Origin: a virus | Taxonomy: Duplodnaviria; Caudoviricetes | Direction: 5' to 3' (one strand) | Virus record (IMG/VR): IMGVR_UViG_3300046804_002082 | Location: 1 to 57,200 of that record | DNA: 57,200 bases | In this document: in pieces, positions 32,254 through 46,977 of the stretch | Layout: every line of letters begins with the position of its first letter | Position numbering within the stretch: the first letter of the stretch is position 1 | Notes under the pieces: generated by a model | The model's database searches: none | Seen by the model: the letters and a program-made list of their open reading frames with translations, nothing else | Told to the model about the DNA's origin: nothing | Position numbers and translations under genes: made by a program

Positions 32254-32525
32254 AACTCTGTTGCTAAGGGGTTTCTATTAAATTTTCTAATTTCTCTTGC
32301 TCTTTGATTTTTTCTTCTCTCGATTTCAGTAGCATCGTATATCTTAAACCAATTGTTGGTTAGCAATCTTAAAGATAACTTGCTCTTGCAATCACAGATA
32401 AATGCCATTTGAAACATAATACCTCGTTCGTCAAATTCCTCAATCAGATTGGTATCTGAATAGTCTTTGTTGCACACGGGGCAATTCAAATGGTTGCGTG
32501 TTATTAAAGGTTTTCTATTTGCCAT
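32250..32525 (-). CDS. Zn-ribbon protein
   Basis: CPVC...CDC. Confidence 0.55.
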   Translation of the reverse strand: MANRKPLITRNHLNCPVCNKDYSDTNLIEEFDERGIMFQMAFICDCKSKLSLRLLTNNWFKIYDATEIERRKNQRAREIRKFNRNPLATEL

Positions 32526-32757
32526 AAGTTTCGTTATAATATTCTTCAGGACTTAAAACTTTTCCAACTACCATAGCTACTATAGAATGCTGAAATGCTT
32601 TTTCTATCTGCTCTTTCTCTATTTCCTTAGCCTTGTCATACCATTCATTTAGAAATTCATCAGCTTGCTTTCTGCTTATTTCATCTCGAACAAGAAGCCA
32701 TTGAATCATTATAAATTTATCCTTTAAAAAATCTACTGCCGTTAGTTTATTTTCCAT
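32515..32757 (-). CDS. Conserved phage hypothetical protein
   Basis: TAVDFL...AKEIEKEQI..AF...EEYYNETY motif. Confidence 0.7.
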   Translation of the reverse strand: MENKLTAVDFLKDKFIMIQWLLVRDEISRKQADEFLNEWYDKAKEIEKEQIEKAFQHSIVAMVVGKVLSPEEYYNETYGK

Positions 32758-32917
32758 TATATTTTAAGTTTGGTAAATACTGCGGATTAAATACCCCTGT
32801 ATGTGGTTGATGGTTAATTGAATAAGACTTCGTAAGCTTCTCTACACTTACTGGCTTTGGCGGTTCTGCTATCTCGCAGGATGTACATAATATTGTACAT
32901 AAGATTAGTTTTTTCAT
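32747..32917 (-). CDS. 56-aa putative lipoprotein
   Basis: Hand-translated MKKLILCTILCTSCEIAEPPKP..., with a signal-like N-terminus ending in SC. Confidence 0.5.
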   Translation of the reverse strand: MKKLILCTILCTSCEIAEPPKPVSVEKLTKSYSINHQPHTGVFNPQYLPNLKYNGK

Positions 32918-33171
32918 AAGCCTTTTAAGTATTTATCTATTGCATCCACCGCTTTATTATAATCACTTGGTCTAGATATCTTGATATCAAAGTGTCGTCT
33001 TTCTGAAAACCAACCTTCGGGCATTGAATAGAACTGAACCAATAGGTAATGATGTGAGCCTGCGCTTCTTAACAGCAGGATGTTATCATTGTGTAATCTT
33101 AAATAAGGCATCTCAATCTTTTTTAGATACGTCCTTATTTTGGAAATCATTGCGGGTTTAATCTTGTCCAT
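32914..33171 (-). CDS. Hypothetical protein (possibly degenerate VRR-NUC-like)
   Basis: ORF track entry. C-terminal AVDAIDKYL resemblance is weak. Confidence 0.5.
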   Translation of the reverse strand: MDKIKPAMISKIRTYLKKIEMPYLRLHNDNILLLRSAGSHHYLLVQFYSMPEGWFSERRHFDIKISRPSDYNKAVDAIDKYLKGL

Positions 33172-33436
33172 AGTCGTATGATAATAAAAAGGTTTTTATT
33201 AATTGAGGTAATGTCTGAATCTGATTCGTCTCTTTATGAGTATAAATCAAATCGTCTTCGGTATTATAAGACTGACGATAATTCCTTGTCGTATAAATTG
33301 TAAACGCAGAAATCAAATCAGTTACTCTTGCTCTGACGACCCTATTAAGTTCGCCACCTTTGTTAAGACCACGATTGTACGCATCACGTAACGTAATCTC
33401 TGTCTCTTGAATTAAGTCTTCTATCTCGTCTGTCAT
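33158..33436 (-). CDS. Hypothetical protein
   Basis: ORF track entry, coupled to the exonuclease gene. Confidence 0.55.
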   Translation of the reverse strand: MTDEIEDLIQETEITLRDAYNRGLNKGGELNRVVRARVTDLISAFTIYTTRNYRQSYNTEDDLIYTHKETNQIQTLPQLIKTFLLSYDYGQD

Positions 33437-34200
33437 TTTTGTTTGGCTTGATGTTCAAATAATAGTTTTATAATATGCTGATAGTCAGCGCACTGAATTA
33501 GATTATACTTTTCTTGCTCTTCGTGGATATGGATTAGCCATAGCTTTCCAATCTTGATGTTAGTATTCTTCTCTATGATATACTTATACAAGTTTAGCTG
33601 AATCGAATAAGCCTCGAACTCGCATTCGTGTAGAAAGTTAATTGGTGCTTTCATTCGTTTACGATACTTGCTATTCATTGCAATTTCCTTGTTGGTCTTG
33701 TAATCCCATATCTCGTAAGACTTGGTCTTGTTATTCCAAAACAAGCAATCCACCATACCACCAACTCCTAGTTCGGCATCTCCCACAACCAACTCCATAG
33801 CAACGGGATATAGATTAATACTAGCATCTGCATAGAACTCTAAAAACATTCGCTTGCACTCGTTATACCGCTCAATAATCGTAGGATACTGCTCTTCGTA
33901 TTTAAGTTCATCTACGGGGAAAACTTTGTTCAACCAATAGTTCTCTGCGAACGCGTGTAATAGCGTCCCCTTTGTCCTAGATATACCTCCTTTGAAATCC
34001 CATTCAGCTAGAACTTCTTCTACTGATATGCCACGTTTCTTGGCGGTCTTTTCAGCCATCCCTTTTGAGTCAAACTTCTCTTTAAACATTCCAACGAATG
34101 TTGTTCCCGAAATCAACTCTTGCTCGCCTATATAATAAACGTGCGGTTCGTCGTAGTATTTTACGTTCTTAAACTTGGATAATTCTTGATGTATATTCAT
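33433..34200 (-). CDS. PD-(D/E)xK exonuclease (Cas4/RecB-like)
   Basis: H.YY...S.T, GTLLH, E...GMVD...IWDYKT, QLNLY motifs. Confidence 0.85.
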   Translation of the reverse strand: MNIHQELSKFKNVKYYDEPHVYYIGEQELISGTTFVGMFKEKFDSKGMAEKTAKKRGISVEEVLAEWDFKGGISRTKGTLLHAFAENYWLNKVFPVDELKYEEQYPTIIERYNECKRMFLEFYADASINLYPVAMELVVGDAELGVGGMVDCLFWNNKTKSYEIWDYKTNKEIAMNSKYRKRMKAPINFLHECEFEAYSIQLNLYKYIIEKNTNIKIGKLWLIHIHEEQEKYNLIQCADYQHIIKLLFEHQAKQK

Positions 34201-34201
34201 A

Positions 34202-35626
34202 TTAGAAAGGCGCATCGTCCCTATCGTCAAACTGATGTGGAATGCTATTTATTTGTGAGTCTATGTAAATTATTTCGGGCTGTGTAAATCTGAATAATTC
34301 TTCCTTCGTATCGGCTACTCGGTTAGTTAATACATCGCAATGACGAACAATAGAACCCGTCATACCATTACGATTCTTTAAAATTACAAACTCCAATGTA
34401 GTATCTATTTCAGTAGGCTCTGGCGTTCCATTTGCTCGCGCCTCCGTCAATGCATAATAGTGTGGACGATACAATCCAATAACGATTGATGCATCTTGCT
34501 CAATATTACCCGACGAACGAATGTCAGATAGTTGTGGGCGCTTATCGTTTCTAGATTCCACCGTTCTACTTAACTGCGACAAGCAAAGGATAGGAATGTT
34601 TAGCTTTCGGGTCAATCTTTGAATCTTTGTTGACACACTAGATACCTGTGCGAAATCGCTTTGGTCTTTGATTTGGCTATCACGAATTAACTGCAAGTAG
34701 TCAATGATTACAATGTCAATCTTATGCTTGCGACACTGCGAAATTATAATGCTTGACAAGTAATTGATATCACGATTATCTGAATCATAAAAGAAAATCG
34801 GTAAGCGCTTCAAGTTGATAGCATCCGAATCTTTAATCTTGTCAATGTCTTCTTGCGATAAACGATATGCACCTAAATCTGCGTAAGTAAACTCTGATGC
34901 TTCTGACGATATGAAACGATTCATTAAGGATTCTTTCGGCATCTCTAATGATAATAGCAATACATTCTTGCCCGACATACCCGCTTTCTTGGCAAAGTCT
35001 AAACCGACAATAGTCTTTCCCGCTGATGGTCTAGCGGCTATAACAATCATCCCTGCTTGCCAACCTCCAACTGAATAGTTAAGCTGACGACTTCCCGTGT
35101 CAACGCCCGAAAACTTTGCCTTCCCCGCATTCTCTTCTAGCAATGTGATTGTGTCGTCAAATACATCTGCAATAGACACCACCTCGCTATTAACATCCAC
35201 ACCTCTATTAAGTGCGTCATTCTCTGCATCAATCGTAGCGCGAATAGTATTAACATCCTCTCCTTTTAATAACATAGAATGAATATTAGCAGACATCTCT
35301 GCTAGTGCGCGCTTTGCATACAATTCCTTTAACTCAATACATACTTCCGACAAGTCAATAATACGCTTGGGTCTCAACGAAAGAATTTCAGCCTCATTGA
35401 CCCCTTTTAATTTCTTTGACTTAACAAGTCGGAATATGTCTGTGCGACTAAATGTATTCTGCGTGTCAGATAATTCAACGCAAGCTGAATAAACTGCCTT
35501 GTTTATCGGGCTAGTAAATACATCTGCGCTCAACATTTTCTTTGCATCTTGGGTATAATGCGAATTTTCAATTAAGAAGCTTGTAAGGTCGGCTTCTAGC
35601 ATCGGGTCAATAAGTTCTAATTTCAT
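34202..35626 (-). CDS. dnaB: Replicative DnaB-family helicase
   Basis: AARPSAGKT (Walker A), SLEM, IIDYLQL, LSQLSR, RPQLSDIRSSGNIEQDA, KNRNG. Confidence 0.95.
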   Translation of the reverse strand: MKLELIDPMLEADLTSFLIENSHYTQDAKKMLSADVFTSPINKAVYSACVELSDTQNTFSRTDIFRLVKSKKLKGVNEAEILSLRPKRIIDLSEVCIELKELYAKRALAEMSANIHSMLLKGEDVNTIRATIDAENDALNRGVDVNSEVVSIADVFDDTITLLEENAGKAKFSGVDTGSRQLNYSVGGWQAGMIVIAARPSAGKTIVGLDFAKKAGMSGKNVLLLSLEMPKESLMNRFISSEASEFTYADLGAYRLSQEDIDKIKDSDAINLKRLPIFFYDSDNRDINYLSSIIISQCRKHKIDIVIIDYLQLIRDSQIKDQSDFAQVSSVSTKIQRLTRKLNIPILCLSQLSRTVESRNDKRPQLSDIRSSGNIEQDASIVIGLYRPHYYALTEARANGTPEPTEIDTTLEFVILKNRNGMTGSIVRHCDVLTNRVADTKEELFRFTQPEIIYIDSQINSIPHQFDDRDDAPF

Positions 35627-35632
35627 ATCGTT

Positions 35633-36328
35633 TTAGTAATTATCAGGTATTTGAATCGTAGTACGTGGCGCTTGTGGGTCGCTAGGTAAATGTGTAGGCG
35701 CTGAATATTTAGGAGCGAATAAACCTGCCCAATTATTAGCAATGGATGTGTCAATGATTTGTTCTAGTTGTGCATCTGAATAGCTAGACCAAGTCTTAAT
35801 CAAAGTCTCACGACCCATTGGTTTATATGTTTGGTTCTTTTCTTTCTTATACTTAAACCATTTTTCAAAAATCAAATCACGTGGACTTAACTCCTTTTCT
35901 TCTTTTACTTTAATTTCCTTTACTTTACTTTCTTTTTCTTTACTTTGTTCAACGGTCGTTGGACTCTCGCTTAGCTGTCGTTTAGCTGCTGACTTTAATC
36001 CAGCCTCTCTGCGTTGTTCTTTCATTCTAAAATATGGTTCTAGATAAACTAACATCTTAGGAGAAAAGAACTTCTCTTCTGCATCAAACTCAAACAATTC
36101 GTAGCCACAAATAGTAGCTTTAACCTTTGCCTCTGACACACCAAACTCTTCTGCAAGTAGGTCAATATCTTCAAGCGGATACATTAAATCTTGTTGCTCC
36201 CTTAATGTTTCTAGGAGCATAAAATAAATACCATACCCCTCTACTCCCAATTCCTTTCTTAGCCTACGAATCTTTCGGTCGTGGCGTGCATTACAAAAAT
36301 GCGGAAAATAATAAGCGTCCTTTTTCAT
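35633..36328 (-). CDS. Phage replication initiator (DUF4373/Lin1244-like N-terminal domain)
   Basis: YFPH..NAR.D.KI..LR...G.EGYGIYF.LLE.L, a Lys/Glu linker and C-terminal SIANNWAGLF. Directly upstream of dnaB. Confidence 0.8.
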   Translation of the reverse strand: MKKDAYYFPHFCNARHDRKIRRLRKELGVEGYGIYFMLLETLREQQDLMYPLEDIDLLAEEFGVSEAKVKATICGYELFEFDAEEKFFSPKMLVYLEPYFRMKEQRREAGLKSAAKRQLSESPTTVEQSKEKESKVKEIKVKEEKELSPRDLIFEKWFKYKKEKNQTYKPMGRETLIKTWSSYSDAQLEQIIDTSIANNWAGLFAPKYSAPTHLPSDPQAPRTTIQIPDNY

Positions 36329-36519
36329 ACTCTTGCTATCTCTTTGTCTAGTGATGAAATAATATCTGATAATCTGTCAACCTCATTCAAAATGATATCG
36401 AATGCGGGAATGTCGGGATTGTAATGTTTAAGCACTCTTTCGTAATCTGAAAGTTCTATTTCAGTGTGTACTTTTTTAACCCGCAAAATTGCTAGATAAG
36501 CTTTGTCTTCTAATGTCAT
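36325..36519 (-). CDS. Hypothetical protein
   Basis: ORF with an AACCAAACAA leader after a promoter. Confidence 0.6.
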   Translation of the reverse strand: MTLEDKAYLAILRVKKVHTEIELSDYERVLKHYNPDIPAFDIILNEVDRLSDIISSLDKEIARV

Positions 36520-36577
36520 TTGATTGTTTGGTTAAGCCCAAGCCCCTCACTAAATGTTGCTAGTGAAAGACTTGGGA

Positions 36578-36585
36578 CAAATATA
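36578..36585 (-). promoter_or_regulatory. Bacteroidota sigma-A -7 element (replication operon)
   Basis: Intergenic TATATTTG on the - strand. Confidence 0.65.
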
Positions 36586-36596
36586 AGCAAATAAAT

Positions 36597-36899
36597 TTAT
36601 TTCGCAATAACGATACTATTTATATTCTGCGTTGGGATAGCTACCACTACGTGTCGTGTGTTATTCTCATAGCAAAACTCGCGTGGTCTACTTAAATCCT
36701 CGAACAATAAAGACTTCGCATCGGTAGTGCATCCAATGTATTTACCTAGCATAATCTCGTTATGCATAAATAATTTATATTCAACCATATACTTCACGTT
36801 TCGGTCATACTGACCTACGTTTGCCCATTTGTTGTCGGGAGCATATACATCTACTTGCTCTCCAAAACGTGTCAAATAAGTTTCCATTACTCTTCTCAT
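36597..36899 (-). CDS. Hypothetical protein
   Basis: ORF track entry. Confidence 0.55.
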   Translation of the reverse strand: MRRVMETYLTRFGEQVDVYAPDNKWANVGQYDRNVKYMVEYKLFMHNEIMLGKYIGCTTDAKSLLFEDLSRPREFCYENNTRHVVVAIPTQNINSIVIAK

Positions 36900-37147
36900 A
36901 ATTCTTTTTCTTTTAAGTTAAAATTGTTTTTAAATCTTACGTTTTTAATACCAAGTCTGTCGTAGAAAATAGTATCTATCTCTTCGGAAAATATTTCATC
37001 TTCTGACACTTGGTTGGTTTGTACTCGTTGTAAAAAATTGTACTTATCGTACACTGGTTTTTCGACTTTCTTTGGATTAAATATTATCCAAGTTGCTAGA
37101 CCGCTTGCGCTTGTTAAGCTTATCAAAATGATTCTTTTTAATTTCAT
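36896..37147 (-). CDS. Hypothetical protein with N-terminal signal/TM segment
   Basis: MKLKRIILISLTSASGLATWIIF. Confidence 0.5.
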   Translation of the reverse strand: MKLKRIILISLTSASGLATWIIFNPKKVEKPVYDKYNFLQRVQTNQVSEDEIFSEEIDTIFYDRLGIKNVRFKNNFNLKEKEL

Positions 37148-37325
37148 CCGCAATGTCGTTTTCTAGATTCGCCATCCCTATATAATGAGATGTTAAAATA
37201 AATATTAGAACAAGGATTATGACTGCTAGGAAACAATCCATTTGTGCCTCAAAAGATTTGGTCGTATATATCTTCACCATAAATAATAGCGTAGATAATC
37301 CCGATGTGTATTGTACTAGCTTCAT
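37077..37325 (-). CDS. Membrane protein
   Basis: Hydrophobic FLAVIILVLIFILT segment. Confidence 0.5.
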   Translation of the reverse strand: MKLVQYTSGLSTLLFMVKIYTTKSFEAQMDCFLAVIILVLIFILTSHYIGMANLENDIADEIKKNHFDKLNKRKRSSNLDNI

Positions 37326-37570
37326 AATAGTTCTATTGTTTTTTTGATTTGATTAATGATTTTTTCGCAAAGCACCTCGTCATTAGGCTCTGTACAATCT
37401 ATTGTTAAGTCTGTTAATTGACTACGCAAATGATTTAGATTAATGATTGGCGTGTAGTATTTCTCTTGGTAGCATTGCCGACCTGCTCTATCGAACATTA
37501 CGATTCGTGTCCATAATTTGCCCGACGACACACCTAGTGTATCCCCGCTTGAAAAGTTATATAATAACAT
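37322..37570 (-). CDS. Hypothetical protein
   Basis: ORF with an AACCAACCAA leader. Confidence 0.55.
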   Translation of the reverse strand: MLLYNFSSGDTLGVSSGKLWTRIVMFDRAGRQCYQEKYYTPIINLNHLRSQLTDLTIDCTEPNDEVLCEKIINQIKKTIELL

Positions 37571-37580
37571 ATTGGTTGGT

Positions 37581-37679
37581 TTAATAAACGATTAAAAGAA
37601 AATATGCAATTGCAACTGCAATAACCATAAGGAGGGCTTCTAGACCCTCCCCGTATGTAGGTTTATTTTTAGAACTCAT
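37581..37679 (-). CDS. 32-aa membrane peptide
   Basis: Hand-translated MSSKNKPTYGEGLEALLMVIAVAIAYFLLIVY. Confidence 0.45.
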   Translation of the reverse strand: MSSKNKPTYGEGLEALLMVIAVAIAYFLLIVY

Positions 37680-37932
37680 TTTTATGCGTCAATTTAAAGG
37701 TTGTTGGATAAGGAGATTGTATAGTATAATCATTGTCGTCGTACACTCCTACGAATAATTCGTCTTCGTATGTAAGATGCAACACAAACCGCTTGCCTCC
37801 CATTTCAAATGACTGCCAAGCATCTCTTTCAAAATCCCAATCTAATACAATATCACAATCCACTTTGTTTACCCTTGCCCATACTAATATCTTCTGCGAA
37901 AAAGGATTGATTACTACATTAAATTTAGTCAT
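37669..37932 (-). CDS. Early hypothetical protein
   Basis: ORF track entry. Confidence 0.6.
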   Translation of the reverse strand: MTKFNVVINPFSQKILVWARVNKVDCDIVLDWDFERDAWQSFEMGGKRFVLHLTYEDELFVGVYDDNDYTIQSPYPTTFKLTHKNEF

Positions 37933-38314
37933 CTGATAATTTGATTTTAAGGGCTGATAATACGTCGTCTAATGATTCACTAGGCTCGTCTGATTCTGAT
38001 TCATCCTCATCGCTTAAAAGCGCCATAAGCAATAGTTTAGACACAAGTTCTTCCATAGATTTTGGATTACGCTCTCGTCTAGCCGAAGCATCAACTCCGT
38101 CACGTTGACTATCTCGTATCTCTCTCCAATAATCTGCACCTTCGGGCGTCTTGGCGAAAAGAAAACTGCTGGATACAAACGTATCAAAGTCGTCAAATTC
38201 CTCTTTCAAGAACTCTTTAAAGTCGTCATTCTCTAATCTGCAATTAACAAAGTTGCTGATGAATTGTGATTGCTCAACCTCGTTAAGCATATCAAAATAT
38301 ATTTGTCCCGTCAT
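37925..38314 (-). CDS. Early acidic protein with F.F..TPEG..YW motif
   Basis: ORF track entry. Motif shared with 41299-41841. Confidence 0.65.
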   Translation of the reverse strand: MTGQIYFDMLNEVEQSQFISNFVNCRLENDDFKEFLKEEFDDFDTFVSSSFLFAKTPEGADYWREIRDSQRDGVDASARRERNPKSMEELVSKLLLMALLSDEDESESDEPSESLDDVLSALKIKLSDD

Positions 38315-38315
38315 A

Positions 38316-38543
38316 TTATTTATTAGTTCTTAATTGTTCGATTTGGTTTAAAAGTTTTTGTGAGTCAGCATTAGCCTTCTCTAATAGATTTTTATAAGCC
38401 TCGCTTAAACAATACAATTCAGATATCAACTCGTCTCTCAATTCCCACTCCTCCATTTCTGCATAGCATTCCATTTGCTCGTAGTCGATTGGGGATAAAG
38501 TACAATCCTTGATTGCATTTAAAATTTTTACTCGTGTACTCAT
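38316..38543 (-). CDS. Early hypothetical protein
   Basis: ATG 7 nt after a class B hairpin. Confidence 0.7.
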   Translation of the reverse strand: MSTRVKILNAIKDCTLSPIDYEQMECYAEMEEWELRDELISELYCLSEAYKNLLEKANADSQKLLNQIEQLRTNK

Positions 38544-38583
38544 TGTTTGAACGATTGCCTATACATCGTGAGGTTCTAGGTTA

Positions 38584-38829
38584 TTAAATAGAATGTGATG
38601 CAAAAGCTAAGTGAGCCATATCTTCGTAGTCATATTTCTTGGGATAATGAATCCGTTGCAAGTTATATGGGGTAGCGTCAAGACCATACTCGCAAGTGTA
38701 ACCGACTGCTCTTAATTCGTCAATCAATTCATTGCACCGCTCGTAAGAATATACATCGTCGGCATACCGCTCAATGATTTCAGTCACGTTTGCGGGCAAT
38801 AGTTCGGGGTATTCAAATAAGTCTTTCAT
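38584..38829 (-). CDS. Early hypothetical protein
   Basis: MKDLFEYPELLP...GYTCEYGLDA.PYNL motif. Confidence 0.7.
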   Translation of the reverse strand: MKDLFEYPELLPANVTEIIERYADDVYSYERCNELIDELRAVGYTCEYGLDATPYNLQRIHYPKKYDYEDMAHLAFASHSI

Positions 38830-38978
38830 TGTAATTGCATTAAAAGGATTTCGATATTATTAATAAGGTTTTCTTCTTCGGAAAAATCTTCCGCTACATA
38901 CTTTCTATCTTCTAAAAGAGTTCTCAACTCTTCTAGGTTCTCGCGAATTACATCGACGATTGCATCTTGTTTAGGCAT
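38826..38978 (-). CDS. 50-aa early protein
   Basis: Hand-translated MPKQDAIVDVIRENLEEL...MQLQ*, overlap-coupled on both sides. Confidence 0.55.
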   Translation of the reverse strand: MPKQDAIVDVIRENLEELRTLLEDRKYVAEDFSEEENLINNIEILLMQLQ

Positions 38979-39495
38979 CTTGTTGTTCTTTAATTAGTGC
39001 TTTTAGGAATGAGGAAACACTGCACGTAAAATGAGTCGATTCAATTAATGATTCGATTGAATCGTACGTAAATGAAGAATGCAGACCCATCTCATATTTA
39101 ATATTATGTTTGCATTCATAATTATATTCACCTACTCTCTTATTTGAATAATCTATAAATCCGTGCATCTTAATCATCTCTTCGCCTCTTATTCTATAAG
39201 ACAATGAATGACCATAATATCGTCCCGTCTCTTGCCACACGGGTTCTAATTCAAAACCTAACTCGTCGAAATAATCAGATAGCTTTTGCAAGTTACTTTC
39301 TATTTCTAGGCGTAACATTTTTACCCTAGCTTTTGCAACTTTATTCTGCTCATCACAAAAAGATTTGTCGGATTGCAACTCTTCTAGAATAGGTACTAGT
39401 GGGTTGCTTGATGATACCTTCGTAGTATTCATCTGCTTAAACTCTTCGATTAAAGAGTCAACAATTTTAGATTGGTTTGGGGTTAAATTTTTCAT
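38971..39495 (-). CDS. Early hypothetical protein
   Basis: ATG 12 nt after a class B hairpin. Confidence 0.7.
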   Translation of the reverse strand: MKNLTPNQSKIVDSLIEEFKQMNTTKVSSSNPLVPILEELQSDKSFCDEQNKVAKARVKMLRLEIESNLQKLSDYFDELGFELEPVWQETGRYYGHSLSYRIRGEEMIKMHGFIDYSNKRVGEYNYECKHNIKYEMGLHSSFTYDSIESLIESTHFTCSVSSFLKALIKEQQDA

Positions 39496-39538
39496 TTGGT
39501 TTGGTTAACGATTGCCTATACATCGTGAGGTTATTGGG

Positions 39539-39754
39539 TTAAACTTCTTCGCTATTTGTTAGAAACATAATTGATGTAAGCGTGGTATTATCATCTTCAT
39601 CGTATAGGTCTTCTTCTACCTCATACACAATCTCTTCATCTGAATCCCTATCGTATCTATAATAGATATGCACATTGCTTAAATCAAATTCCTTTTGAGT
39701 TTCCAGTAGGAATTCTAATAACTTTTTTGCAGTCAAAGGTTTTTTGTTTTTCAT
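39539..39754 (-). CDS. Early acidic protein
   Basis: Start reassigned to MKNKK, 7 nt after the hairpin. Confidence 0.7.
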   Translation of the reverse strand: MKNKKPLTAKKLLEFLLETQKEFDLSNVHIYYRYDRDSDEEIVYEVEEDLYDEDDNTTLTSIMFLTNSEEV

Positions 39755-39794
39755 AATACTGACGATTGACCTATACATCGTGAGGTTAAAGTGA

Positions 39795-39992
39795 TTAAAT
39801 AGTAAATTGCATAAAGTAGTTTATCATACAATCGTAAAGGCTCTCATATCCGTCATTAGAAGGCGACGCCAAGAAATCCTCATACAATGTAATTATCTCG
39901 CCGAAAGCTAAATCATATTCTAGTTCGACATCAATACGCTCATAGGCATAAGCCAACTGCGTGAACAAAAAGAAATCATAATCGTATTTCAT
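39795..39992 (-). CDS. Early acidic protein
   Basis: Start reassigned to MKYDY, 7 nt after the hairpin. Confidence 0.7.
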   Translation of the reverse strand: MKYDYDFFLFTQLAYAYERIDVELEYDLAFGEIITLYEDFLASPSNDGYESLYDCMINYFMQFTI

Positions 39993-40031
39993 AATACTGA
40001 CGATTGTCCTATACATCGTGAGGTTAAAGGT

Positions 40032-40181
40032 TTAATTAGTTAAATCGTAATAGCTGTCAGCATAAAAATTAGCTACGTTTATTAGCTTATCTACTAACTG
40101 CGGAACATCTAGTTCTTCTACTTTAATTGCATCGTCATCGTCTAAAAGATTTTTCAATGCTTCAATAAGTTGCTCTCTCAT
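40032..40181 (-). CDS. Early small protein
   Basis: Start reassigned to MREQL, 10 nt after the hairpin. Confidence 0.65.
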   Translation of the reverse strand: MREQLIEALKNLLDDDDAIKVEELDVPQLVDKLINVANFYADSYYDLTN

Positions 40182-40229
40182 TGTTTTATTAGCGATTGTC
40201 CTATACATCGTGAGGTTTTTAGTGATACC

Positions 40230-40237
40230 CAAATATA
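40230..40237 (-). promoter_or_regulatory. Bacteroidota sigma-A -7 element
   Basis: TATATTTG on the - strand at the boundary between class A and class B repeats. Confidence 0.65.
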
Positions 40238-40249
40238 GGGCGGTAAAAA

Positions 40250-40537
40250 TTATTCTGCTGAAATAGTAGACGAATCCGCTGATTGTGTAGACGAAATATC
40301 TTGGCTTGCTGAATTGTTGCTAGTGATATTATTTCGTCGTGCATAAGCCTTTGCCCAACCTAGTTGCGCTATTGTTAATTGCTCGTTAAACGTAGCGTAC
40401 TTTGCCATTTTGATAATCTTATTGTGTTCGGTATCGGCTTGGTACACATAGTTCTTTTGAGCGCATTCATAGACCGCTTTCATTAGGGCTTCGTTCTCTT
40501 TATAAATACGTGTTGATTCTTTATTAAATGTAGGCAT
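40250..40537 (-). CDS. Early hypothetical protein
   Basis: ATG 8 nt after a class A hairpin. Confidence 0.7.
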   Translation of the reverse strand: MPTFNKESTRIYKENEALMKAVYECAQKNYVYQADTEHNKIIKMAKYATFNEQLTIAQLGWAKAYARRNNITSNNSASQDISSTQSADSSTISAE

Positions 40538-40577
40538 ATTGTTAGGCGGTTTCCTTTACACCGCAAGGTTAAGGTTA

Positions 40578-40781
40578 TTAGTCGTTGTTAATCTGATTTT
40601 GTAATTTTTCTATCCAATGATTGGGTAGTTCTACGCAACTGATTACTATCTCATTTGCATAGCAATCAGCAATAGCCTCATCTTTACTGCCAAATATAAT
40701 AATGTCTCCCATTCCGTCTTGCAATGGATTGTCGTTTGCTTTATCATAAACAACAAAGTCGTATTCAGATAATTTTTTCAT
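40578..40781 (-). CDS. Early hypothetical protein
   Basis: ATG 8 nt after the hairpin. Confidence 0.7.
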   Translation of the reverse strand: MKKLSEYDFVVYDKANDNPLQDGMGDIIIFGSKDEAIADCYANEIVISCVELPNHWIEKLQNQINND

Positions 40782-40821
40782 AATCTTATGCGGTTGCCTC
40801 TACACCGCAAGGTTAAAATGA

Positions 40822-41247
40822 TTAGTAATTGTAAAGGTCTTCCCACCCGTCTACTGCTTTCGGTACGCTAGGCATCTCTCTTCTGTCCTCGTCGTAGTTG
40901 ATTATTAACTGCACTACCTCTTGGGTATTTGTTAGTCCCAATTTGTAATACTTATGAAATTCGTCAGCATCCATATTAGCAAAGTCAGAATGAGCGAATG
41001 AATGCAAATGATAGTAGTTCCACGTGCCGTCACAATCTCCGTCACAACCCGTATGCAAGAAGCCGTAAGTTGTTGACCCGTCTCTTATTATCTTGACAAA
41101 GTAATGAATACCTTCGCCACCCGTAATAATCGTATCAGTGAACTGAATGAGTTCCCCCCTTAATGATACGGGAACAAACAAATCTCTTTGATAATCGTGA
41201 ATATTCCAATTAACAAATTCTCCTAATCTCATTGCAAGATTTTTCAT
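40822..41247 (-). CDS. Early hypothetical protein
   Basis: Start reassigned to MKNLA, 10 nt after the hairpin. Confidence 0.7.
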   Translation of the reverse strand: MKNLAMRLGEFVNWNIHDYQRDLFVPVSLRGELIQFTDTIITGGEGIHYFVKIIRDGSTTYGFLHTGCDGDCDGTWNYYHLHSFAHSDFANMDADEFHKYYKLGLTNTQEVVQLIINYDEDRREMPSVPKAVDGWEDLYNY

Positions 41248-41298
41248 AATAGTAATAGCGGTTGACCTATCCACCGCAAGGCTAAAATGATTAGTGTT

Positions 41299-41841
41299 TT
41301 ATTTTCTACTAGCAATTGTTCGCCAATATGAGTGACCTTTCTTTGTGTTCTCCCAACTAAACGCTCCCGCAACAAACGGGTAAAGACTATCCTCTTTATT
41401 GCGCTCAATATAGTCGTTTGTATAGCCAACCCTATCCGCATTTAATTCGTCAACGAACTCAACCCACTCGTCATAGCTTAACAATTCTAGCACATCCTTT
41501 TGCAAGCAAGCTACCTCAATAGGGTATTTGGCACGCTCTATTTGTACTATATCGTTGTCTAATGAGCCGACCTCATTTAAGAAAGTTGCCTCTATTTTGA
41601 AGCCCTCAAACGTACCCTTAATATCAAGGTATTTGTCAGTCTCGCAACCGCCGTCACGACTTGTAAGGGTTAACGTATCGCTCATTAATAGCTTAGTAAA
41701 CATATCAATTCCGTTACCCTTTTTTAGGTAGAAAAACAAGTCAAGTTCTCCGCTAGACTTGACACTCAAATTGATTACGCTAGCCTCGTTTGGCTTCATC
41801 AATTCCACAAACTTTGTAAGGTTTTTTGTTGCTTGCAACAT
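41299..41841 (-). CDS. Early protein with C-terminal AF.W..T..G..YW motif
   Basis: Start reassigned to MLQAT, 11 nt after the hairpin. Confidence 0.7.
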   Translation of the reverse strand: MLQATKNLTKFVELMKPNEASVINLSVKSSGELDLFFYLKKGNGIDMFTKLLMSDTLTLTSRDGGCETDKYLDIKGTFEGFKIEATFLNEVGSLDNDIVQIERAKYPIEVACLQKDVLELLSYDEWVEFVDELNADRVGYTNDYIERNKEDSLYPFVAGAFSWENTKKGHSYWRTIASRK

Positions 41842-41883
41842 AAGATTAATATGCGGTTGACCTATACACCGCAAGGTTCTAGA

Positions 41884-42177
41884 TTAAAAATGAAAATCAA
41901 AATCAACTTCTTTGCCCTCTACTATATCTTCCTCTTTCCATACGTTTACCTTAAAGTCAACGCCCTTGTCCACTAGCCAAATCATAAGGCTTTTCTCTTC
42001 CATAGTCAACCTTTCTATTGACATAGTTTGTTCGGTAGAAAAATCCCTATTATTTGTGTACTCATAAAATCCAGTGTAGATTGTTTCACATTTCTCTTGA
42101 ATCCAATCTGCTTTAATCTTAAAGGTTTTCTCTCGGTACTCTCCTTTAAAAACGTAAGTGTATGATGTAATAATCAT
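41884..42177 (-). CDS. Early hypothetical protein
   Basis: Start reassigned to MIITS, 10 nt after a class C hairpin. Confidence 0.7.
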   Translation of the reverse strand: MIITSYTYVFKGEYREKTFKIKADWIQEKCETIYTGFYEYTNNRDFSTEQTMSIERLTMEEKSLMIWLVDKGVDFKVNVWKEEDIVEGKEVDFDFHF

Positions 42178-42187
42178 AAGGGTAAAA

Positions 42188-42212
42188 TTCGGTTTAGCGA
42201 CCACCGAAAAGC
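42188..42212 (-). repeat. Class C start-associated hairpin, copy 1
   Basis: + strand TTCGGT-TTAGCGACC-ACCGAA-AAGC, nearly identical to 45038-45063. Confidence 0.85.
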
Positions 42213-42236
42213 GTAGGTTTATATAATAATTAAACT

Positions 42237-42491
42237 TTAATCTGCTAGCGCCCAAAGTTCATAGACGTCGTCGTAGGTTAATCCGTACATCTCCGCAAGG
42301 CGTTCAAACAATCGCTCTCGCACTAAGCTATCCGTGACCTCTATATAGTCATAGACCTCTTTCTTTAAGCATAGCGTCCCGTAAAGACCTAGAAACGTAG
42401 CCGTCTCATTTAACTCCGCACCTAACTCGTCGGTCGGGAATGTCTTTGTGTAATACTCTTTGATATTATCCGTCATCAAAAATGTTAACAT
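42237..42491 (-). CDS. Early hypothetical protein
   Basis: PTDELG...DS.VRER.F..L motif. ATG 10 nt after the hairpin. Confidence 0.75.
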   Translation of the reverse strand: MLTFLMTDNIKEYYTKTFPTDELGAELNETATFLGLYGTLCLKKEVYDYIEVTDSLVRERLFERLAEMYGLTYDDVYELWALAD

Positions 42492-42533
42492 AGTTTTAGT
42501 GGCGGTTGCCTATACACCGCAAGGTTAAAGTGA

Positions 42534-42746
42534 TTAATATAATGTTATACTTTTAAGGTCTTTCTCGTTGATTATCGTGGTCACGATTGTGCATTTATGA
42601 CCATAAATCTTTTTGCGCTCTACCATAGCCTTTATAAAGTCTAGGTTTGCCGAATAGGTAGGCTTCCACCCTTCGATTCCGTTCCACGTATCATCACGTA
42701 GGTCTAGTTGAAAACCACGTTGGTTTACGATATGATATACTTTCAT
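42534..42746 (-). CDS. Early hypothetical protein
   Basis: ATG 10 nt after the hairpin. Confidence 0.7.
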   Translation of the reverse strand: MKVYHIVNQRGFQLDLRDDTWNGIEGWKPTYSANLDFIKAMVERKKIYGHKCTIVTTIINEKDLKSITLY

Positions 42747-42787
42747 AATACTAGTGGCGGTTGCCTATACACCGCAAGGTTAAAAGG

Positions 42788-43051
42788 TTAATTTAAAATT
42801 AATTTTACGTGATATGTATCTACGTCGCCGTATTCATCTAGGACATATTTCTGCCCCTTTACTAATAGCTTTTCGTCTATCGGTTTATTTTGCATTGATT
42901 CTAGCATATCATTTTGTGTTATACTAAACTCACGAAAATTCAATAAATTAGAATAAGCCATAGCTATAAAGTCCCCTCGCTCATTAAGATACCAATCCAA
43001 GAATTTTTCGCGGTCAATGAGCAATGTGTCTGTTAATTCATAAGTTCTCAT
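42788..43051 (-). CDS. Early hypothetical protein
   Basis: Start reassigned to MRTYE, 7 nt after the hairpin. Confidence 0.7.
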   Translation of the reverse strand: MRTYELTDTLLIDREKFLDWYLNERGDFIAMAYSNLLNFREFSITQNDMLESMQNKPIDEKLLVKGQKYVLDEYGDVDTYHVKLILN

Positions 43052-43106
43052 AATAATAGCGGTTGACCTACACACCGCAAGGTTTTAAGATTGTTGCTAG
43101 TGAAAA

Positions 43107-44069
43107 TTATTTGGCGGTCTCTAATATTAAAGCTACCGCCTCTTGTGACTTTTTGCTTGACTGCATAATCAAGTTCTTGTCGTCGTTGATTGCCTTAATC
43201 CACCCGTTAATATAGGCTTGACTATTTTTAAAGTCGTCAACCTTGCAATCAATTCCCGTGATAGCTTCTAGATAAAGCGCACCCAACTCCGCTACTAATT
43301 CCTCCTTTGAGTAATTCTCGCTACCGAAATTTGCCGTCGTGTCTAGTCGGTTAAGGCGTGACTTGTGTCCCGTGCTATGGATAGCCTCGTGAAAGAATAC
43401 CTTGTAATAATCCCCGCTTGACTGCCACTGCTTGTCCGTCTTTTCGGGCATTTGAATATAGTCCCCGCTAGGGCTATAAAACGCTTGTCCTTGCTTGCTA
43501 TGTTTAAGCGTGACTACACTAGACCACCCTTTTAATATAGCCTCCGCGCTAGCTACCGCCTCCAATTCGGTTGCCTCTTCTTCTACTAGATTGGGCGTGT
43601 CGTGAGGTAGGTTCGTTTGACTGATTGACCATACTTTCCACTGCTTCAAGTAGAAAGATTTGCGGGCTATTTTCTTGTCCGCTTCGGGTACTTTTGCTAG
43701 GGTAGGATAGTAGGTAGTTTTCCCGTCCTTGTCCACTGCATAGCTGATTTGCCACATAAAGATATCCGTCCCCTTTTCCCCCTTATTAATTAAGCCCTCA
43801 CATTTTTGGATATGGGCAAACGTGTACCACTTGTTGACCCAATTGTTTTCTAAGGCTATTGCCGAAAGAATAAATTGATTCCAACCTTTGTACGGGCGTC
43901 CATAAGCGGACAACGCTTGAAAGCTACCCGTCACGCCGTCCTTGAAAGGCTTAAACCACTGCAATCCCTTGTCTTTGAGACCCGCTATAACCTTGTCGTT
44001 AATTGAGTCAATGATTTGCGCTTGTGTTAATTTTGGTGCGCTTGCAAATGTTTTTTTAGCTACTGCCAT
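43107..44069 (-). CDS. ardC: ArdC-family antirestriction protein (ssDNA-binding domain plus zincin-like metallopeptidase domain)
   Basis: W.KPF, RPYKGWN, WYTF, KGEKG, AFYSP..D.I.MP, HEAIHSTGH..RLNR, YSKEELVAELGA, AYI.GW. Start MAVAK 11 nt after the hairpin. Confidence 0.92.
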   Translation of the reverse strand: MAVAKKTFASAPKLTQAQIIDSINDKVIAGLKDKGLQWFKPFKDGVTGSFQALSAYGRPYKGWNQFILSAIALENNWVNKWYTFAHIQKCEGLINKGEKGTDIFMWQISYAVDKDGKTTYYPTLAKVPEADKKIARKSFYLKQWKVWSISQTNLPHDTPNLVEEEATELEAVASAEAILKGWSSVVTLKHSKQGQAFYSPSGDYIQMPEKTDKQWQSSGDYYKVFFHEAIHSTGHKSRLNRLDTTANFGSENYSKEELVAELGALYLEAITGIDCKVDDFKNSQAYINGWIKAINDDKNLIMQSSKKSQEAVALILETAK

Positions 44070-44111
44070 AAGATTAATAAGCGGTTGACCTACCACCGCA
44101 AGGCTTAAAGA

Positions 44112-44405
44112 TTATTTGATTGTTTTTAATTCTACCGCGTTGGGCAACGTAGAAAGATATTCAACGTAGCCAACCTCATTTTCCGTAACGAAAGCCCAAT
44201 CGTCATTAATAAATGTTTCTAAGGCGCGACCCATAAAAAATGAAGGCTCGAAATCGTCAAGCGTGTAGGGTGATTTCGCTTCACCCGTCATAGATATATA
44301 ATAATTATTAAGCGCGTCAAGCATTTGCTCCTTGTTGTCAAAGCTAAAATGTAAAGGATGTCCGTCCCCTTTCATTCCTAAAATGTTAAAAATTGCGTAG
44401 TACAT
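44112..44405 (-). CDS. Early hypothetical protein
   Basis: ATG 7 nt after the hairpin. Confidence 0.7.
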   Translation of the reverse strand: MYYAIFNILGMKGDGHPLHFSFDNKEQMLDALNNYYISMTGEAKSPYTLDDFEPSFFMGRALETFINDDWAFVTENEVGYVEYLSTLPNAVELKTIK

Positions 44406-44443
44406 AACAAAGGCGGTTGACCAATTACCGCAAGGCTTTAAGA

Positions 44444-44521
44444 TTAAGATAATAAACTAGCAACGATAAGGGCTAGGGCAACCCGTGCCACTAGACCCAA
44501 CTGAAATTTTAAGTCCTCCAT
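44444..44521 (-). CDS. 25-aa hydrophobic peptide
   Basis: Hand-translated MEDLKFQLGLVARVALALIVASLLS*, fills the gap before the next hairpin. Confidence 0.5.
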   Translation of the reverse strand: MEDLKFQLGLVARVALALIVASLLS

Positions 44522-44522
44522 A

Positions 44523-44702
44523 TTACTTACCCTCCTCCACTGAAATACAACCACCTGCCGAAAAGATAGACCCAAACACTAAGAAAGCGAAGCGACCGCC
44601 TACGGGCGCATCTGCTACCCAAGCCAAGTCCCACGCCACAAAGGCGATAAGAAAGTAAAACACTACAAAAATCAAAGCGATAACTTTTACATAGATATTC
44701 AT
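44523..44702 (-). CDS. Early two-TM membrane protein
   Basis: Start MNIYV 8 nt after the hairpin. Two hydrophobic helices. Confidence 0.65.
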   Translation of the reverse strand: MNIYVKVIALIFVVFYFLIAFVAWDLAWVADAPVGGRFAFLVFGSIFSAGGCISVEEGK

Positions 44703-44741
44703 AATAATTCGCGGTTGACCTATCCACCGCAAGGCTAATGA

Positions 44742-45029
44742 TTATAATAATTCAGTTAATTTGTGCATATCAATTTCGCATTGAACGAATTCGTAAAGCG
44801 ACTGATAAGCTAGTTCGGTTATATTTGTGCAACCCCCGAAATCCGTTACTCCTAATGCCATAACAATAGCGAAGCAATCAGAATAATAGATACAAGCCGT
44901 GTCAATTTCTTGACTGATATAGTCTTGAATTTCGTCGTAATCAGTCATAAGATTAGTCTTTGACCCAATCAAGTCAATAATTTCTTTTTCTAGTGTTTCC
45001 ACAAAAAGAAAGGGATTAAATTTTTCCAT
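44742..45029 (-). CDS. First early gene, acidic protein
   Basis: Start MEKFN 8 nt after a class C hairpin. EID..CIYY.D...LAY..L motif. Confidence 0.7.
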   Translation of the reverse strand: MEKFNPFLFVETLEKEIIDLIGSKTNLMTDYDEIQDYISQEIDTACIYYSDCFAIVMALGVTDFGGCTNITELAYQSLYEFVQCEIDMHKLTELL

Positions 45030-45037
45030 AGGAAAAG

Positions 45038-45063
45038 TTCGGTTAAAGCGACAACCGAAAAGC
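45038..45063 (-). repeat. Class C start-associated hairpin, copy 2
   Basis: + strand TTCGGTT-AAAGCGAC-AACCGAA-AAGC. Confidence 0.85.
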
Positions 45064-45077
45064 AAAGTTGAAAAAAT

Positions 45078-45093
45078 TGTTTCACGTGGAACA
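45078..45093. promoter_or_regulatory. parS: parS (ParB/Spo0J-binding) site
   Basis: TGTTTCACGTGGAACA, a 15/16 match to the bacterial chromosomal parS palindrome TGTTTCACGTGAAACA. Confidence 0.85.
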
Positions 45094-45103
45094 TACCACG
45101 TTG

Positions 45104-45171
45104 CGACTAGATAGGGAAACGAACCCTACACTCACGGGACTAAGCCTAAGTGAGGCGACCAACGTCTAGCC
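45104..45171 (-). ncRNA. tRNA-like RNA lacking a canonical D-arm
   Basis: GGCTAGA/TCTAGTC 7-bp acceptor-like stem, TAGGG-TTCGTTT-CCCTA T-arm and CTCAC/GTGAG middle arm. Confidence 0.6.
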
Positions 45172-45546
45172 GTTAAGCGTAAACTATCACTAGCGGTAGC
45201 GGTTCAAAAGGGCTAAACCCAATTTATGTACATCCGTTTCATTGCACCCGTTGACCCTACGGGGGTGGGAATTTGATAACTCTGTTTTTTCAGAAAAGCC
45301 GATAAGTCAAAGAACTATTTAAGCATACTTTCGTCCGTTCGGTCGGGGCTATTGACAAACCGCGTTTAGCGCGGTACAAGTACTTATGTTTAACGTCTAG
45401 CCCTCCCCTAGTGAGCCTATCCTTTGCACCACTATTGCAGTGGCTTCGCATCTCCCCCTAATGAGCCAATTCGGGCGTTCGGGGTATATAGCACGCGCCT
45501 CGTTCGGCGGGCTTGTCTCGTGAGCCGTTGCTCCCGTTTGACATTA

Positions 45547-45554
45547 CAAACCTA
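45547..45554 (-). promoter_or_regulatory. Probable major early promoter (-7 element)
   Basis: TAGGTTTG on the - strand, with TTGACA about 17 nt upstream, at the edge of the GC-rich leader. Confidence 0.6.
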
Positions 45555-45677
45555 CACAATTTTATATACCCTTGTCAAGTTTTCTTTGAAAAATGCAATG
45601 AATTAGTTCAAATTAGTTGAAAGTTCTTTAAATAATACAATTAGCATAGTAATAACCCTTTCGCCCTATACTGAATT

Positions 45678-45765
45678 CGCGCTACACGCACGATACGCGA
45701 CACGCACGCTACGCGCAACACGCGACACGTACACGCATCACACGCGCGACGCACACGCGCTACAC
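45678..45765. repeat. ACGC/ACAC-rich low-complexity degenerate repeat tract
   Basis: cgcgctacacgcacgatacgcgacacgcacgctacgcgcaacacgcgacacg..., mostly alternating purine-pyrimidine, in the divergent intergenic region. Confidence 0.8.
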
Positions 45766-46061
45766 TATGAGCAATTTTAGACCCCCGATTTTGCGTCTAA
45801 TGAACTTTCTTTACTAGGGCGGATAGATTGGACATTTTAGGGGGTAAAGTCGCTTAAATCAAAGATATGACCCCTTAAATCGAATGCTTTGTTTTGTACA
45901 ATTTTTGTCTAGGAAAAATCCTATATGAATTGTAGGGTCGTTGGGGGGTTGATTTTTGGGGGTTATTGTTGGGCGGGTAGACCCTCTTGCCGACCTATAC
46001 GCCTAGCAATTTATTTTTCTATCCTGACTTGTGGGGGTTGTTGTTTCTTGACGGGGTCAAT

Positions 46062-46150: not shown

Positions 46151-46301
46151 GGAATTTTGGAATTTTGATTATGAAAAGAGACCCCACCCCGTTCGGAATT
46201 TGCGGTTTGTCATTGGTTTGGCGACCCGTCCCGTTTTATATATAACCTTCTGAAAACACCTACGCGCTACATAAAAAATTGCAACATTGGCGACTAATCA
46301 T

Positions 46302-46309
46302 TACCTTTG
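46302..46309 (+). promoter_or_regulatory. Bacteroidota sigma-A -7 element
   Basis: TACCTTTG before the GroES-like gene. Confidence 0.65.
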
Positions 46310-46335
46310 GACACATAAACCAAACGATATATAAA

Positions 46336-46977
46336 ATGTTACAATACAACATCAGGCAAGCACCTGCAAATACGGTCATTGTAGAGGTTGGTAAAACGCT
46401 AGAAGATACAGTTACTTTTGGCAGTATGACGCTACACATAGACCCTGAATTTAACCCTACACATCACGCAAGAATCTTTGGACGAGTAGTCGCTGTACCA
46501 GACGGTAGAACGTGGGACGAAGAGAACAATACAATTAACGACGAGGTTGAGGTAGGCGACCTTATATACTTCCATTACTTAGTAACTAGCAATGAAGCAA
46601 ACTGTATCTACGGCAACTATTATAAAGTACCTTATTATTGGATTTTTTGTAGCGTTAGGAACGGTAATATATTACCTGTTGGAGGCTGGACTTTATGCGA
46701 GCCGACGGTTGAGCAGGAATATAATACAGTTGAAGTTGAAGGTAAGAAAATGGAAGCGACTTTTAGTGCATCAGGATTAGTGACATCTGTGTTTAAAACA
46801 CCATCTGTTGACGTAGCAAAGTTATCATATATTGGTAAGCCAGTAGGTGACAATTATGAGTGCGAAGCAAAGGTAGGTGCAACAGTAGTTTTAGCTAAAA
46901 ACTCCAACTTTCTTAACAAAATTGAAGGTAAAGACTACTATACTGTTAAGCAACAATACATCTTAGGAGTTAAATAA
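46336..46977 (+). CDS. Tandem GroES-like co-chaperonin
   Basis: Two GroES-like halves: G.VVAVP...VEVGD.IYF and P.GG..L.EP...SASGLV...VG..V...IEGKDYYTVK...IL. Confidence 0.7.
   Translation: MLQYNIRQAPANTVIVEVGKTLEDTVTFGSMTLHIDPEFNPTHHARIFGRVVAVPDGRTWDEENNTINDEVEVGDLIYFHYLVTSNEANCIYGNYYKVPYYWIFCSVRNGNILPVGGWTLCEPTVEQEYNTVEVEGKKMEATFSASGLVTSVFKTPSVDVAKLSYIGKPVGDNYECEAKVGATVVLAKNSNFLNKIEGKDYYTVKQQYILGVK

Follow-up and report, generated by a model that had tools for sequence, protein, structure and literature searches.

A conserved mimic of the tRNA top half in phage early operons, a candidate RNA-processing signal in a slot shared with hammerhead ribozymes

In plant mitochondria, t-elements direct cuts by RNase Z and/or RNase P that form messenger RNA (mRNA) ends; such cuts were proposed, and for cox1, ccmC and nad6 demonstrated by end mapping (Forner et al. 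2007, PMC1920247). The t-element is the closest described system to the subject of this analysis, an element resembling part of a transfer RNA (tRNA) at positions 45101-45171 on the - strand of a phage genome, IMG/VR virus record IMGVR_UViG_3300046804_002082 (57,200 bases, completeness estimate 90%; the whole record is called the window below). The two share non-canonical tRNA-like folds, a position beside mRNA ends and, at the level of the element's family, the conserved T-arm motif GGTTCRANYCC. However, t-elements are organellar and served by organellar enzymes, whereas here the setting is a phage, the cut is a predicted one, A58 of the T-loop is broken, and relatives alternate the element with hammerhead ribozymes. 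The explanation favoured here, with somewhat better than even confidence, is that the element is a transcribed mimic of the tRNA top half that serves as a cleavage signal for host RNase Z or RNase P in the leader of an early operon, much as t-elements do in plant mitochondria.

Hammerhead ribozymes flanking phage and prophage genes were already proposed to cut long transcripts into gene-length mRNAs (Perreault et al. 2011, PMC3088659). Their intercistronic placement is the same as that of the element family, and relatives of the phage carry hammerheads in the slot that the family fills. Unlike those self-cutting RNAs, the element has no ribozyme core detectable by Rfam and would depend on host enzymes. 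According to a review (PMC11143913), E. coli RNase P RNA cuts model hairpins that consist of an acceptor stem, a T-stem and a T-loop, and does so at the canonical site. The same parts are retained here; the model substrates are synthetic and end in a 3′ CCA, in contrast to the CAA tail and extra arm of the window copy. A comparison with transfer-messenger RNA (tmRNA) and Y RNAs, made in an earlier note on this DNA, stands as a resemblance: the tRNA-like domain of tmRNA and the tRNA-like module of the bacterial Y RNA YrlA (Chen et al. 2014, PMC4201824) are likewise partial mimics in which a T-arm and an acceptor-like stem persist. It does not extend to identity, since ARAGORN finds no tmRNA in the window and Rfam neither family; furthermore, tmRNA has distant 5′ and 3′ ends around a tag open reading frame (ORF), together with pseudoknots, whereas only 53 nucleotides (nt) separate the acceptor strands of the element. 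The mascRNA of MALAT1 and the tRNA-like units of murine gammaherpesvirus 68 are also tRNA-like folds within longer transcripts, used by RNase P or RNase Z to make ends; these are eukaryotic and have a fuller cloverleaf. A 2023 catalogue of viral structured RNAs (10,006 candidates) mentions tRNA-like candidates (PMC10690425). Punctuation of phage mRNA by mimics of the tRNA top half was not found described in the literature searched, whose scope leaves out the supplementary tables of that catalogue; such elements may be listed there.

The sequence was re-read on the - strand, and the base-by-base parse given in the earlier note holds exactly:

45165-45171, - strand: 5′ strand of the acceptor stem, GGCTAGA (from the sequence, the match of covariance model R1 and covariation, both described below)
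45155-45164, - strand: 10-nt single strand CGTTGGTCGC replacing the D-arm, with TGG at 45161-45159
45131-45154, - strand: middle arm, with a stem of five base pairs (bp), CTCAC (45154-45150) and GTGAG (45135-45131), and a 14-nt loop (45149-45136)
45112-45128, - strand: T-arm, TAGGG (45128-45124), loop TTCGTTT (45123-45117) and CCCTA (45116-45112)
45105-45111, - strand: 3′ strand of the acceptor stem, TCTAGTC (same three lines of evidence as the 5′ strand)
45101-45104, - strand: discriminator-like G (45104) and tail CAA (45103-45101); CCA is not encoded

The acceptor stem contains 7 bp, one of them G.U, and an eighth pair is possible between C45172 and G45104. Two bases, TG (45130-45129), join the middle arm to the T-stem, and the 14-nt loop can form two extra inner pairs (GG/CC). 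The stacking of a 7-bp acceptor on a T-stem of 5 bp whose loop spans 7 nt is shared with tRNAs; the window copy has neither a D-stem nor, on its 5-bp middle stem, the 7-nt loop of an anticodon arm. The TGG at 45161-45159 is a possible stand-in for G18-G19 of the D-loop, with a presumed docking role, and TGG or GG recurs in the linker of relatives' copies. Position 58 of the T-loop is U (T in the DNA), where tRNAs have A58. The window therefore reads GGTTCGTTTCC, with T at the A position, and does not fit the t-element motif. In fold and placement the likeness to t-elements holds: an acceptor and T-arm fold like that of tRNA, non-canonical elsewhere, on the coding strand and at an mRNA border, 74 nt upstream of the first early ATG. 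An exact 11-nt repeat of the acceptor 5′ strand plus four bases (45161-45171) recurs at 45392-45402, 231 nt upstream in the leader. This second copy was considered as an alternative pairing partner and dropped: a relative, L017, keeps the upstream copy, yet its acceptor differs.

Standard detectors pass over the element. ARAGORN, a check proposed in the earlier note, calls no tRNA in the window, and Rfam 15 returns nothing there at gathering scores. At E<=10, Rfam gives no tRNA (RF00005) or tmRNA match over 44900-45500, and permissive thresholds over the leader and the whole early operon yield nothing meaningful. An exact-match search of IMG/VR with the first 22 nt of the element returned no stretches.

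Comparison with relatives was more informative. Relatives of the large terminase (TerL) in IMG/VR number 339, and 80 of their loci, given L numbers here, were kept. By blastn, L017 is 72% identical over 339 nt, element included, and L003 and L004 carry canonical T-arm sequences at the matching place; ARAGORN finds no tRNAs in 32 of the relatives' loci. A descriptor script specifying a T-loop-like motif, a 5-bp T-stem and a 7-bp acceptor with any linker located elements in 13 relatives' loci, on the - strand and 2.5-3 kb upstream of the terminase. Covariance model R1 was seeded with eight relatives' copies, the window being excluded. Its seed alignment, A4, holds these copies with 6-nt 5′ flanks, and the other copies were aligned by the model; A4 replaced three MAFFT alignments (A1, A2 and A3) in which the variable-length copies were not in structural register. 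With filters off and both strands of the window searched, R1 scores 45101-45177 (-) at 29.7 bits (E 2.5e-5). The runner-up reaches 11.5 bits (E 1.3), leaving the element as the only match under E=1 in 57,200 bases. Over the window and the 80 loci (921,738 bases), R1 gives 19 matches with E<=1, and every one of them occupies the syntenic place on the - strand. Across the whole genomes of five relatives, all seven matches at E<0.01 lie in the syntenic region, and two weak matches lie elsewhere (E 0.27 and 0.97).

The 19 copies retain their pairing while changing their letters. Standard pairs fill 94.6% of the cells of the 19-row alignment, against 73.3% in shuffled versions (0/500 reach the observed value) and 39-49% when the partners are slid. 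Changes on both sides of a pair are seen for 7/7 acceptor and 3/5 T-stem pairs (10/12 in total). Eight cells hold G.U pairs that fit the - strand, which suggests that the fold acts as RNA of that strand. Because R1, built without the window, matches the element as its sole significant hit, and because the 19 syntenic copies covary, the fold is more than chance, and the sequences place the element in a conserved, covarying family. The description of the locus in the earlier note, a tRNA mimic lacking a D-stem and a standard anticodon loop, is thereby borne out and extended from one copy to a family.

The middle arm is confined to the window and L017; 17 of the 19 copies lack it. Between these two, one stem pair and one inner pair of the arm are changed on both sides and still paired. 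A pattern scan of IMG/VR for three-armed copies returned five stretches, of which four are unrelated chance matches and one is L017's own contig. In the other 17 copies the acceptor is followed by a 10-26-nt linker, usually with TGG or GG, and then directly by the T-arm. Since most copies are without the middle arm, the conserved unit is the acceptor and T-arm, the top half of a tRNA. First-slot copies (n=13) begin with G and have a tail N-C-(C, T or A)-A: CCA in three, CTA in eight and CAA in two, the window among the latter. Copies of a second type (n=6) read AAYCTAG, CTTGGAGC..., T-arm, CTAGRTT. A58 is kept in 16/19 copies, being absent from the window (U) and from two copies with the T-loop CTCGCAA, and 16/19 copies fit GGTTCRANYCC. 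The reduced form is itself conserved, which argues against a decaying ordinary tRNA gene, the alternative that the earlier note had set against its own proposal. In L012, L016 and L024, the TAG of the acceptor is the stop of an open frame 51-58 codons long; the leaders of L012 and L016 are near-identical and provide no independent test.

In relatives, type I hammerhead ribozymes are found by Rfam on the same strand and in the same operon. They exceed the Rfam gathering score in L024 and L016 and fall just below it (gathering 34) in L012 (31.5 bits) and L025 (31.4 bits). A motif script for the CUGANGA...GAAA core gave ten matches, namely three unrelated ones on the + strand and seven complete hammerhead-like motifs in the early operons of six relatives. 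Two of the seven thus pass the gathering score, two stand at 31.4-31.5 bits and three are found by motif only. In the window, the script finds no hammerhead and Rfam has no hammerhead hit at E<=1 over 26000-46000. The seven motifs are as follows:

L016, 2435-2483 and 2775-2818, - strand: hammerhead motifs between early cistrons
L024, 3197-3245, - strand: hammerhead motif between early cistrons
L012, 2557-2605, - strand: hammerhead motif between early cistrons
L025, 3233-3282, - strand: hammerhead motif between early cistrons
L002, 2608-2651, - strand: hammerhead motif between early cistrons
L017, 3048-3091, - strand: hammerhead motif between early cistrons

The surroundings of the two kinds of module are alike. 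In all six second-type elements, acceptor base 1 lies within the TAA that ends the upstream ORF, and the hammerheads start at -13 to +3 of the upstream stop in 7/7 cases, with the stop in or abutting stem I in five. All 13 are followed by the same hairpin of the 5′ untranslated region (5′-UTR), which lies 12-16 nt past the discriminator-like base or cut site, and by an ATG 42-77 nt downstream. The stem of this hairpin is TTCGGT/ACCGAA with compensated variants, and its loop is GTAGGTA or near it. First-slot elements belong to the leader: five copies lie 19-23 nt ahead of the first ATG, and the rest, that of the window among them, have the hairpin in between. The shared 5′-UTR hairpin follows 5/13 of them, with divergent loops in the window and L004. 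Downstream of the window's element lie the following features:

45077-45101, - strand: conserved hairpin ACGTGG-TATGTT-CCACGT followed by GAAACAA; its 16-mer occurs once in the window
45038-45059, - strand: 5′-UTR hairpin TTCGGT-(10 nt)-ACCGAA, 8 nt before the start codon, also listed as terminator-like
44742-45029, - strand: first early ORF (ORF1), 95 amino acids, ATG at 45029-45027, without a Shine-Dalgarno (SD) motif and without a known family

The 5′-UTR hairpin family, with a loop that is mostly GTAGGTA, recurs 8-14 nt before the starts of many early cistrons in L002-L035, a group lacking SD motifs; judging by its sequence and place it could be a 5′-end protector or a binding site for a protein or the ribosome. 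The hairpin with GAAACAA, its loop reading (T)ATGTT, follows both tRNA-like elements in L003 (2298-2313 and 3278-3293) and in L004 (2276-2291 and 3256-3271), the closest relatives of the window's phage, sits between the tRNA-like element and the 5′-UTR hairpin, and is absent from other relatives. With its stem II-like and GAAAC-like parts it faintly resembles a decayed half of a hammerhead, but it lacks both the 5′ core CUGANGA and stem III.

By these arrangements, one slot is filled either by a tRNA-like element or by a self-cleaving ribozyme, and because the two interchange, site-specific RNA cleavage is their simplest common denominator. It is unlikely that the element instead works uncut, as a structural cap that protects an mRNA end from exonucleases or as a coupling element that recruits a tRNA-binding factor to aid translation of the next cistron. 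TruB or TrmA as chaperones, EF-Tu, the CCA-adding enzyme and the ribosome were considered as such factors, in a host that does without SD pairing. The position of the elements 19-77 nt before start codons would suit this role, as would the rarity of SD-like motifs (2/40 window ORFs, vs a background of 9.7%); the near-invariant GGTTCGATTCC suggests proteins that read T-loops, and stop codons inside the acceptor stem would tie folding to translation upstream. However, uncut function leaves the self-cleaving hammerheads of the same slot unexplained, some carriers of second-type elements are high-GC phages in which a clear SD motif precedes the next gene, and protection of an end still requires that the end be formed.

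The second type extends well beyond these relatives. One narrow pattern for it, searched against IMG/VR, gave 67 matches in 62 further stretches, 57 of them with at least 6/7 acceptor pairs; the high-GC phages just mentioned are among the matches. Placement was tested on 50 distinct elements with at least 6/7 acceptor pairs, counting an upstream frame of at least 50 codons that ends at -12 to +6. Such an ORF end precedes 40 of the 50, vs 4/50 on the opposite strand, and in 25 of those 40 the stop codon overlaps acceptor base 1 or 2. An ORF start follows within 110 nt downstream in 47/50, vs 13/50 on the opposite strand. The second-type family is strongly intercistronic. In L125 (424-3049, - strand), seven elements occupy 2.6 kb, one of the first type and then six of the second, and L128 (4847-7560, + strand) has six elements in 2.7 kb; in both operons a tRNA-like element precedes nearly every small gene. 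No Rfam family covers the second-type elements, and ARAGORN calls none of them in 15 loci, its five tRNA calls there lying elsewhere.

This distribution bears on two further explanations. Phage tRNAs that counter tRNA-cleaving defences exist, and the earlier note had raised the possibility of a decoy. A decoy or sponge for defences or enzymes acting on tRNA acceptor ends or T-arms would agree with the ArdC-like anti-restriction gene of the same early operon and with the retention of an acceptor end and CCA-like tail. The suggestion finds no support in the family, where the anticodon-like arm, the usual target, is missing from 17/19 copies and placement is intercistronic and strand-specific. 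Neither the precise positions at stop codons and before 5′-UTR hairpins nor the interchange with hammerheads would be expected of a decoy, and the 50 distinct elements display 26 different acceptor strands rather than copying one host tRNA; a decoy role is accordingly held to be quite improbable. Even less credence is given to a feature of the DNA with no RNA role, whether a recombination joint at a cassette border or a leftover of a tRNA gene or phage attachment site (attP). The early region is indeed a mosaic of cassettes: for example, one gene stands behind the first element in L002 but behind the second in L010, and ORF1 itself is swapped as a cassette whose borders are precisely its start region and the next gene, a DNA contig from another sample joining 44738 to 45036 with different letters in between. 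A DNA-level role is contradicted by the compensatory changes that keep both stems in 19 copies, by the G.U pairs that make the fold strand-specific, by the orientation of the elements relative to genes and by the conservation of the reduced form, which speaks against decay in progress; a scan of 29 window ORFs detected no integrase family. The decoy, decayed-tRNA and attachment-site readings are thus poorly supported.

The element lies on the - strand inside an 860-base gap that separates two diverging gene blocks. To its left, a - strand block contains small early-type genes (the ArdC-like anti-restriction protein, a replication initiator, a DnaB-type helicase and an exonuclease); to its right, a + strand block encodes a GroES-like protein, TerL, a portal and an SU10-type capsid protein. 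The phage, of ~57 kb and from fresh water, is virulent-looking. By terminase, the nearest cultured phages (33% identity) infect Flavobacterium, Cellulophaga, Tenacibaculum and Maribacter, and the host is probably a member of the Flavobacteriia. A blastn search of 44700-46000 against cultured phage records gave no matches, and relatives of ORF1 were sought in IMG/VR and none were found. The GroES-like gene (46279-46977, + strand) encodes a 232-residue protein that matches GroES-type PHROG families at residues 31-108 and 161-231, while Pfam Cpn10 matches its C-terminal part (158-231) only; it lies directly upstream of the terminase, the same arrangement as in Flavobacterium phage elemoE. A 3,358-residue ORF at 15139-25215 (+ strand) has no PHROG matches; the counterpart position in elemoE holds a 3,695-residue 'structural protein'. 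Between the diverging early and late blocks, a CACGC/CGCG-rich imperfect repeat array (45667-45765; 5 copies of ~25 nt each) could, from its sequence, be an origin or a regulator-binding array, and a GC-rich tract resembling it is found at ~3830-3900 of L010.

Upstream of the element, two features describe the likely origin of the transcript:

45547-45578, - strand: inferred early promoter of Bacteroidota type, TTG (45578-45576), 21 nt, TAGGTTTG (45554-45547); predicted start ~45541
45172-45541, - strand: non-coding leader upstream of the element, partly conserved (L017, 72% over 339 nt; blocks in L004)

TTG-N21-TAGGTTTG at 45578-45547 matches what we take to be the Bacteroidota promoter consensus. 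A TAnnTTTG box stands at the matching place, with similar letters after it, in 7/13 aligned leaders. Given the predicted start, ~370 nt of a ~510-nt leader would precede the element. Two metatranscriptome runs, which belong to two studies, contain contigs of 197 and 180 nt that lie in their entirety over 45337-45534 and 45346-45517, and a DNA contig extends past both ends. Reaching up to 45534, the RNA-library contigs are a weak hint of abundant leader RNA that starts near the predicted start, and 45337-45534 (-) may be a discrete small RNA from the early promoter. Rfam has no match in 45172-45541. Leader hairpins show compensatory changes relative to L017, e.g., CCGCG...CGCGG vs CCTAG...CTAGG.

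In the favoured reading of a processing signal, the element has retained the stacked acceptor and T-stems, the T-loop, a GG-bearing strand that possibly docks on it and the discriminator-like base, and has lost the decoding parts. The retained features are the parts read by RNase P, as its model substrates indicate (PMC11143913), and by RNase Z and the CCA-adding enzyme. Host RNase Z would cut after G45104 and/or RNase P before G45171. The long structured leader would thereby come off, and what precedes the 5′ hairpins of the first early mRNA would be a short 5′ end at a defined position. Between the successive early cistrons of relatives, this module or a hammerhead substituting for it would act as the separator. 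The earlier proposal of an RNase P/Z signal that frees the early mRNA thus gains support from context, namely a slot common with hammerheads that runs from stop codon to 5′-UTR hairpin, and cleavage itself is its predicted part.

Several points weigh against this reading. If RNase P cut second-type copies at base 1, the stop codon that overlaps it would be lost, which makes RNase P an awkward candidate at least for these copies. Hammerhead cleavage, by contrast, falls on the 3′ side and spares the stop codon. On both grounds, a 3′-side cut of RNase Z type is favoured as the shared event, with RNase P possible in the first slot, where no ORF precedes. The window copy is atypical in its U58, its CAA tail and an extra arm common to one relative only, and may be a weaker or specialised member; R1 and Rfam scans find neither a second element nor a hammerhead in the window's own operon. 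The RNA-library contigs within 44400-45900 cover only 45337-45534 and not the element. Among 27 loci with TerL identity of at least 72%, 13 are without an R1 match, some of these being without the upstream flank, and the best R1 match in Flavobacterium phage elemoE (bases 10000-59979, 50 kb) has E 0.6 and is no member. The alignment used for covariation was fitted to R1, and 8 of its 19 rows are the R1 seed. Furthermore, the 78-nt fold has z = -1.0, with 29/200 shuffles folding equally well, and the structure parsed above reaches -17.1 kcal/mol (-18.7 with the two inner pairs) vs a minimum free energy of -21.1, so that it lies 2.4-4 kcal/mol above the minimum. Thermodynamics by itself does not single out the fold; the support beyond chance is comparison.

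A broader reading, held tentatively and as a whole with clearly less than even confidence, is that the early operons of many unrelated phages follow a modular grammar of stop codon, cleavage module, 5′ hairpin and start codon. The role of cleavage module would fall to a self-cutting hammerhead or to a mimic of the tRNA top half, the latter borrowing the host enzymes that process tRNA ends. With the upstream stop forming part of the acceptor stem or of hammerhead stem I, folding of the module would have to wait until ribosomes had cleared it, and cutting would be gated by translation. The upstream mRNA that is cut off would keep the mimic as a tRNA-like 3′ end and could be CCA-tagged and protected. 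The three-armed U58 copy of the window would represent a first-slot variant between a full tRNA and the 42-45-nt minimal form.

If true, this would mean that phages hand mRNA punctuation to the tRNA-processing enzymes of their hosts, a logic known from mitochondria, and swap the module freely with hammerhead ribozymes. The puzzling phage hammerheads would gain a functional equivalent and, with it, a testable shared role. A class of conserved intergenic sequences overlooked by tRNA finders and Rfam would be accounted for as well. For annotation, it follows that an isolated GGTTCGATTCC motif in a phage genome should not automatically be taken for a decayed tRNA or an attachment site. In addition, the module, at ~45 nt, would be a compact part with which to split polycistronic RNAs in bacteria.
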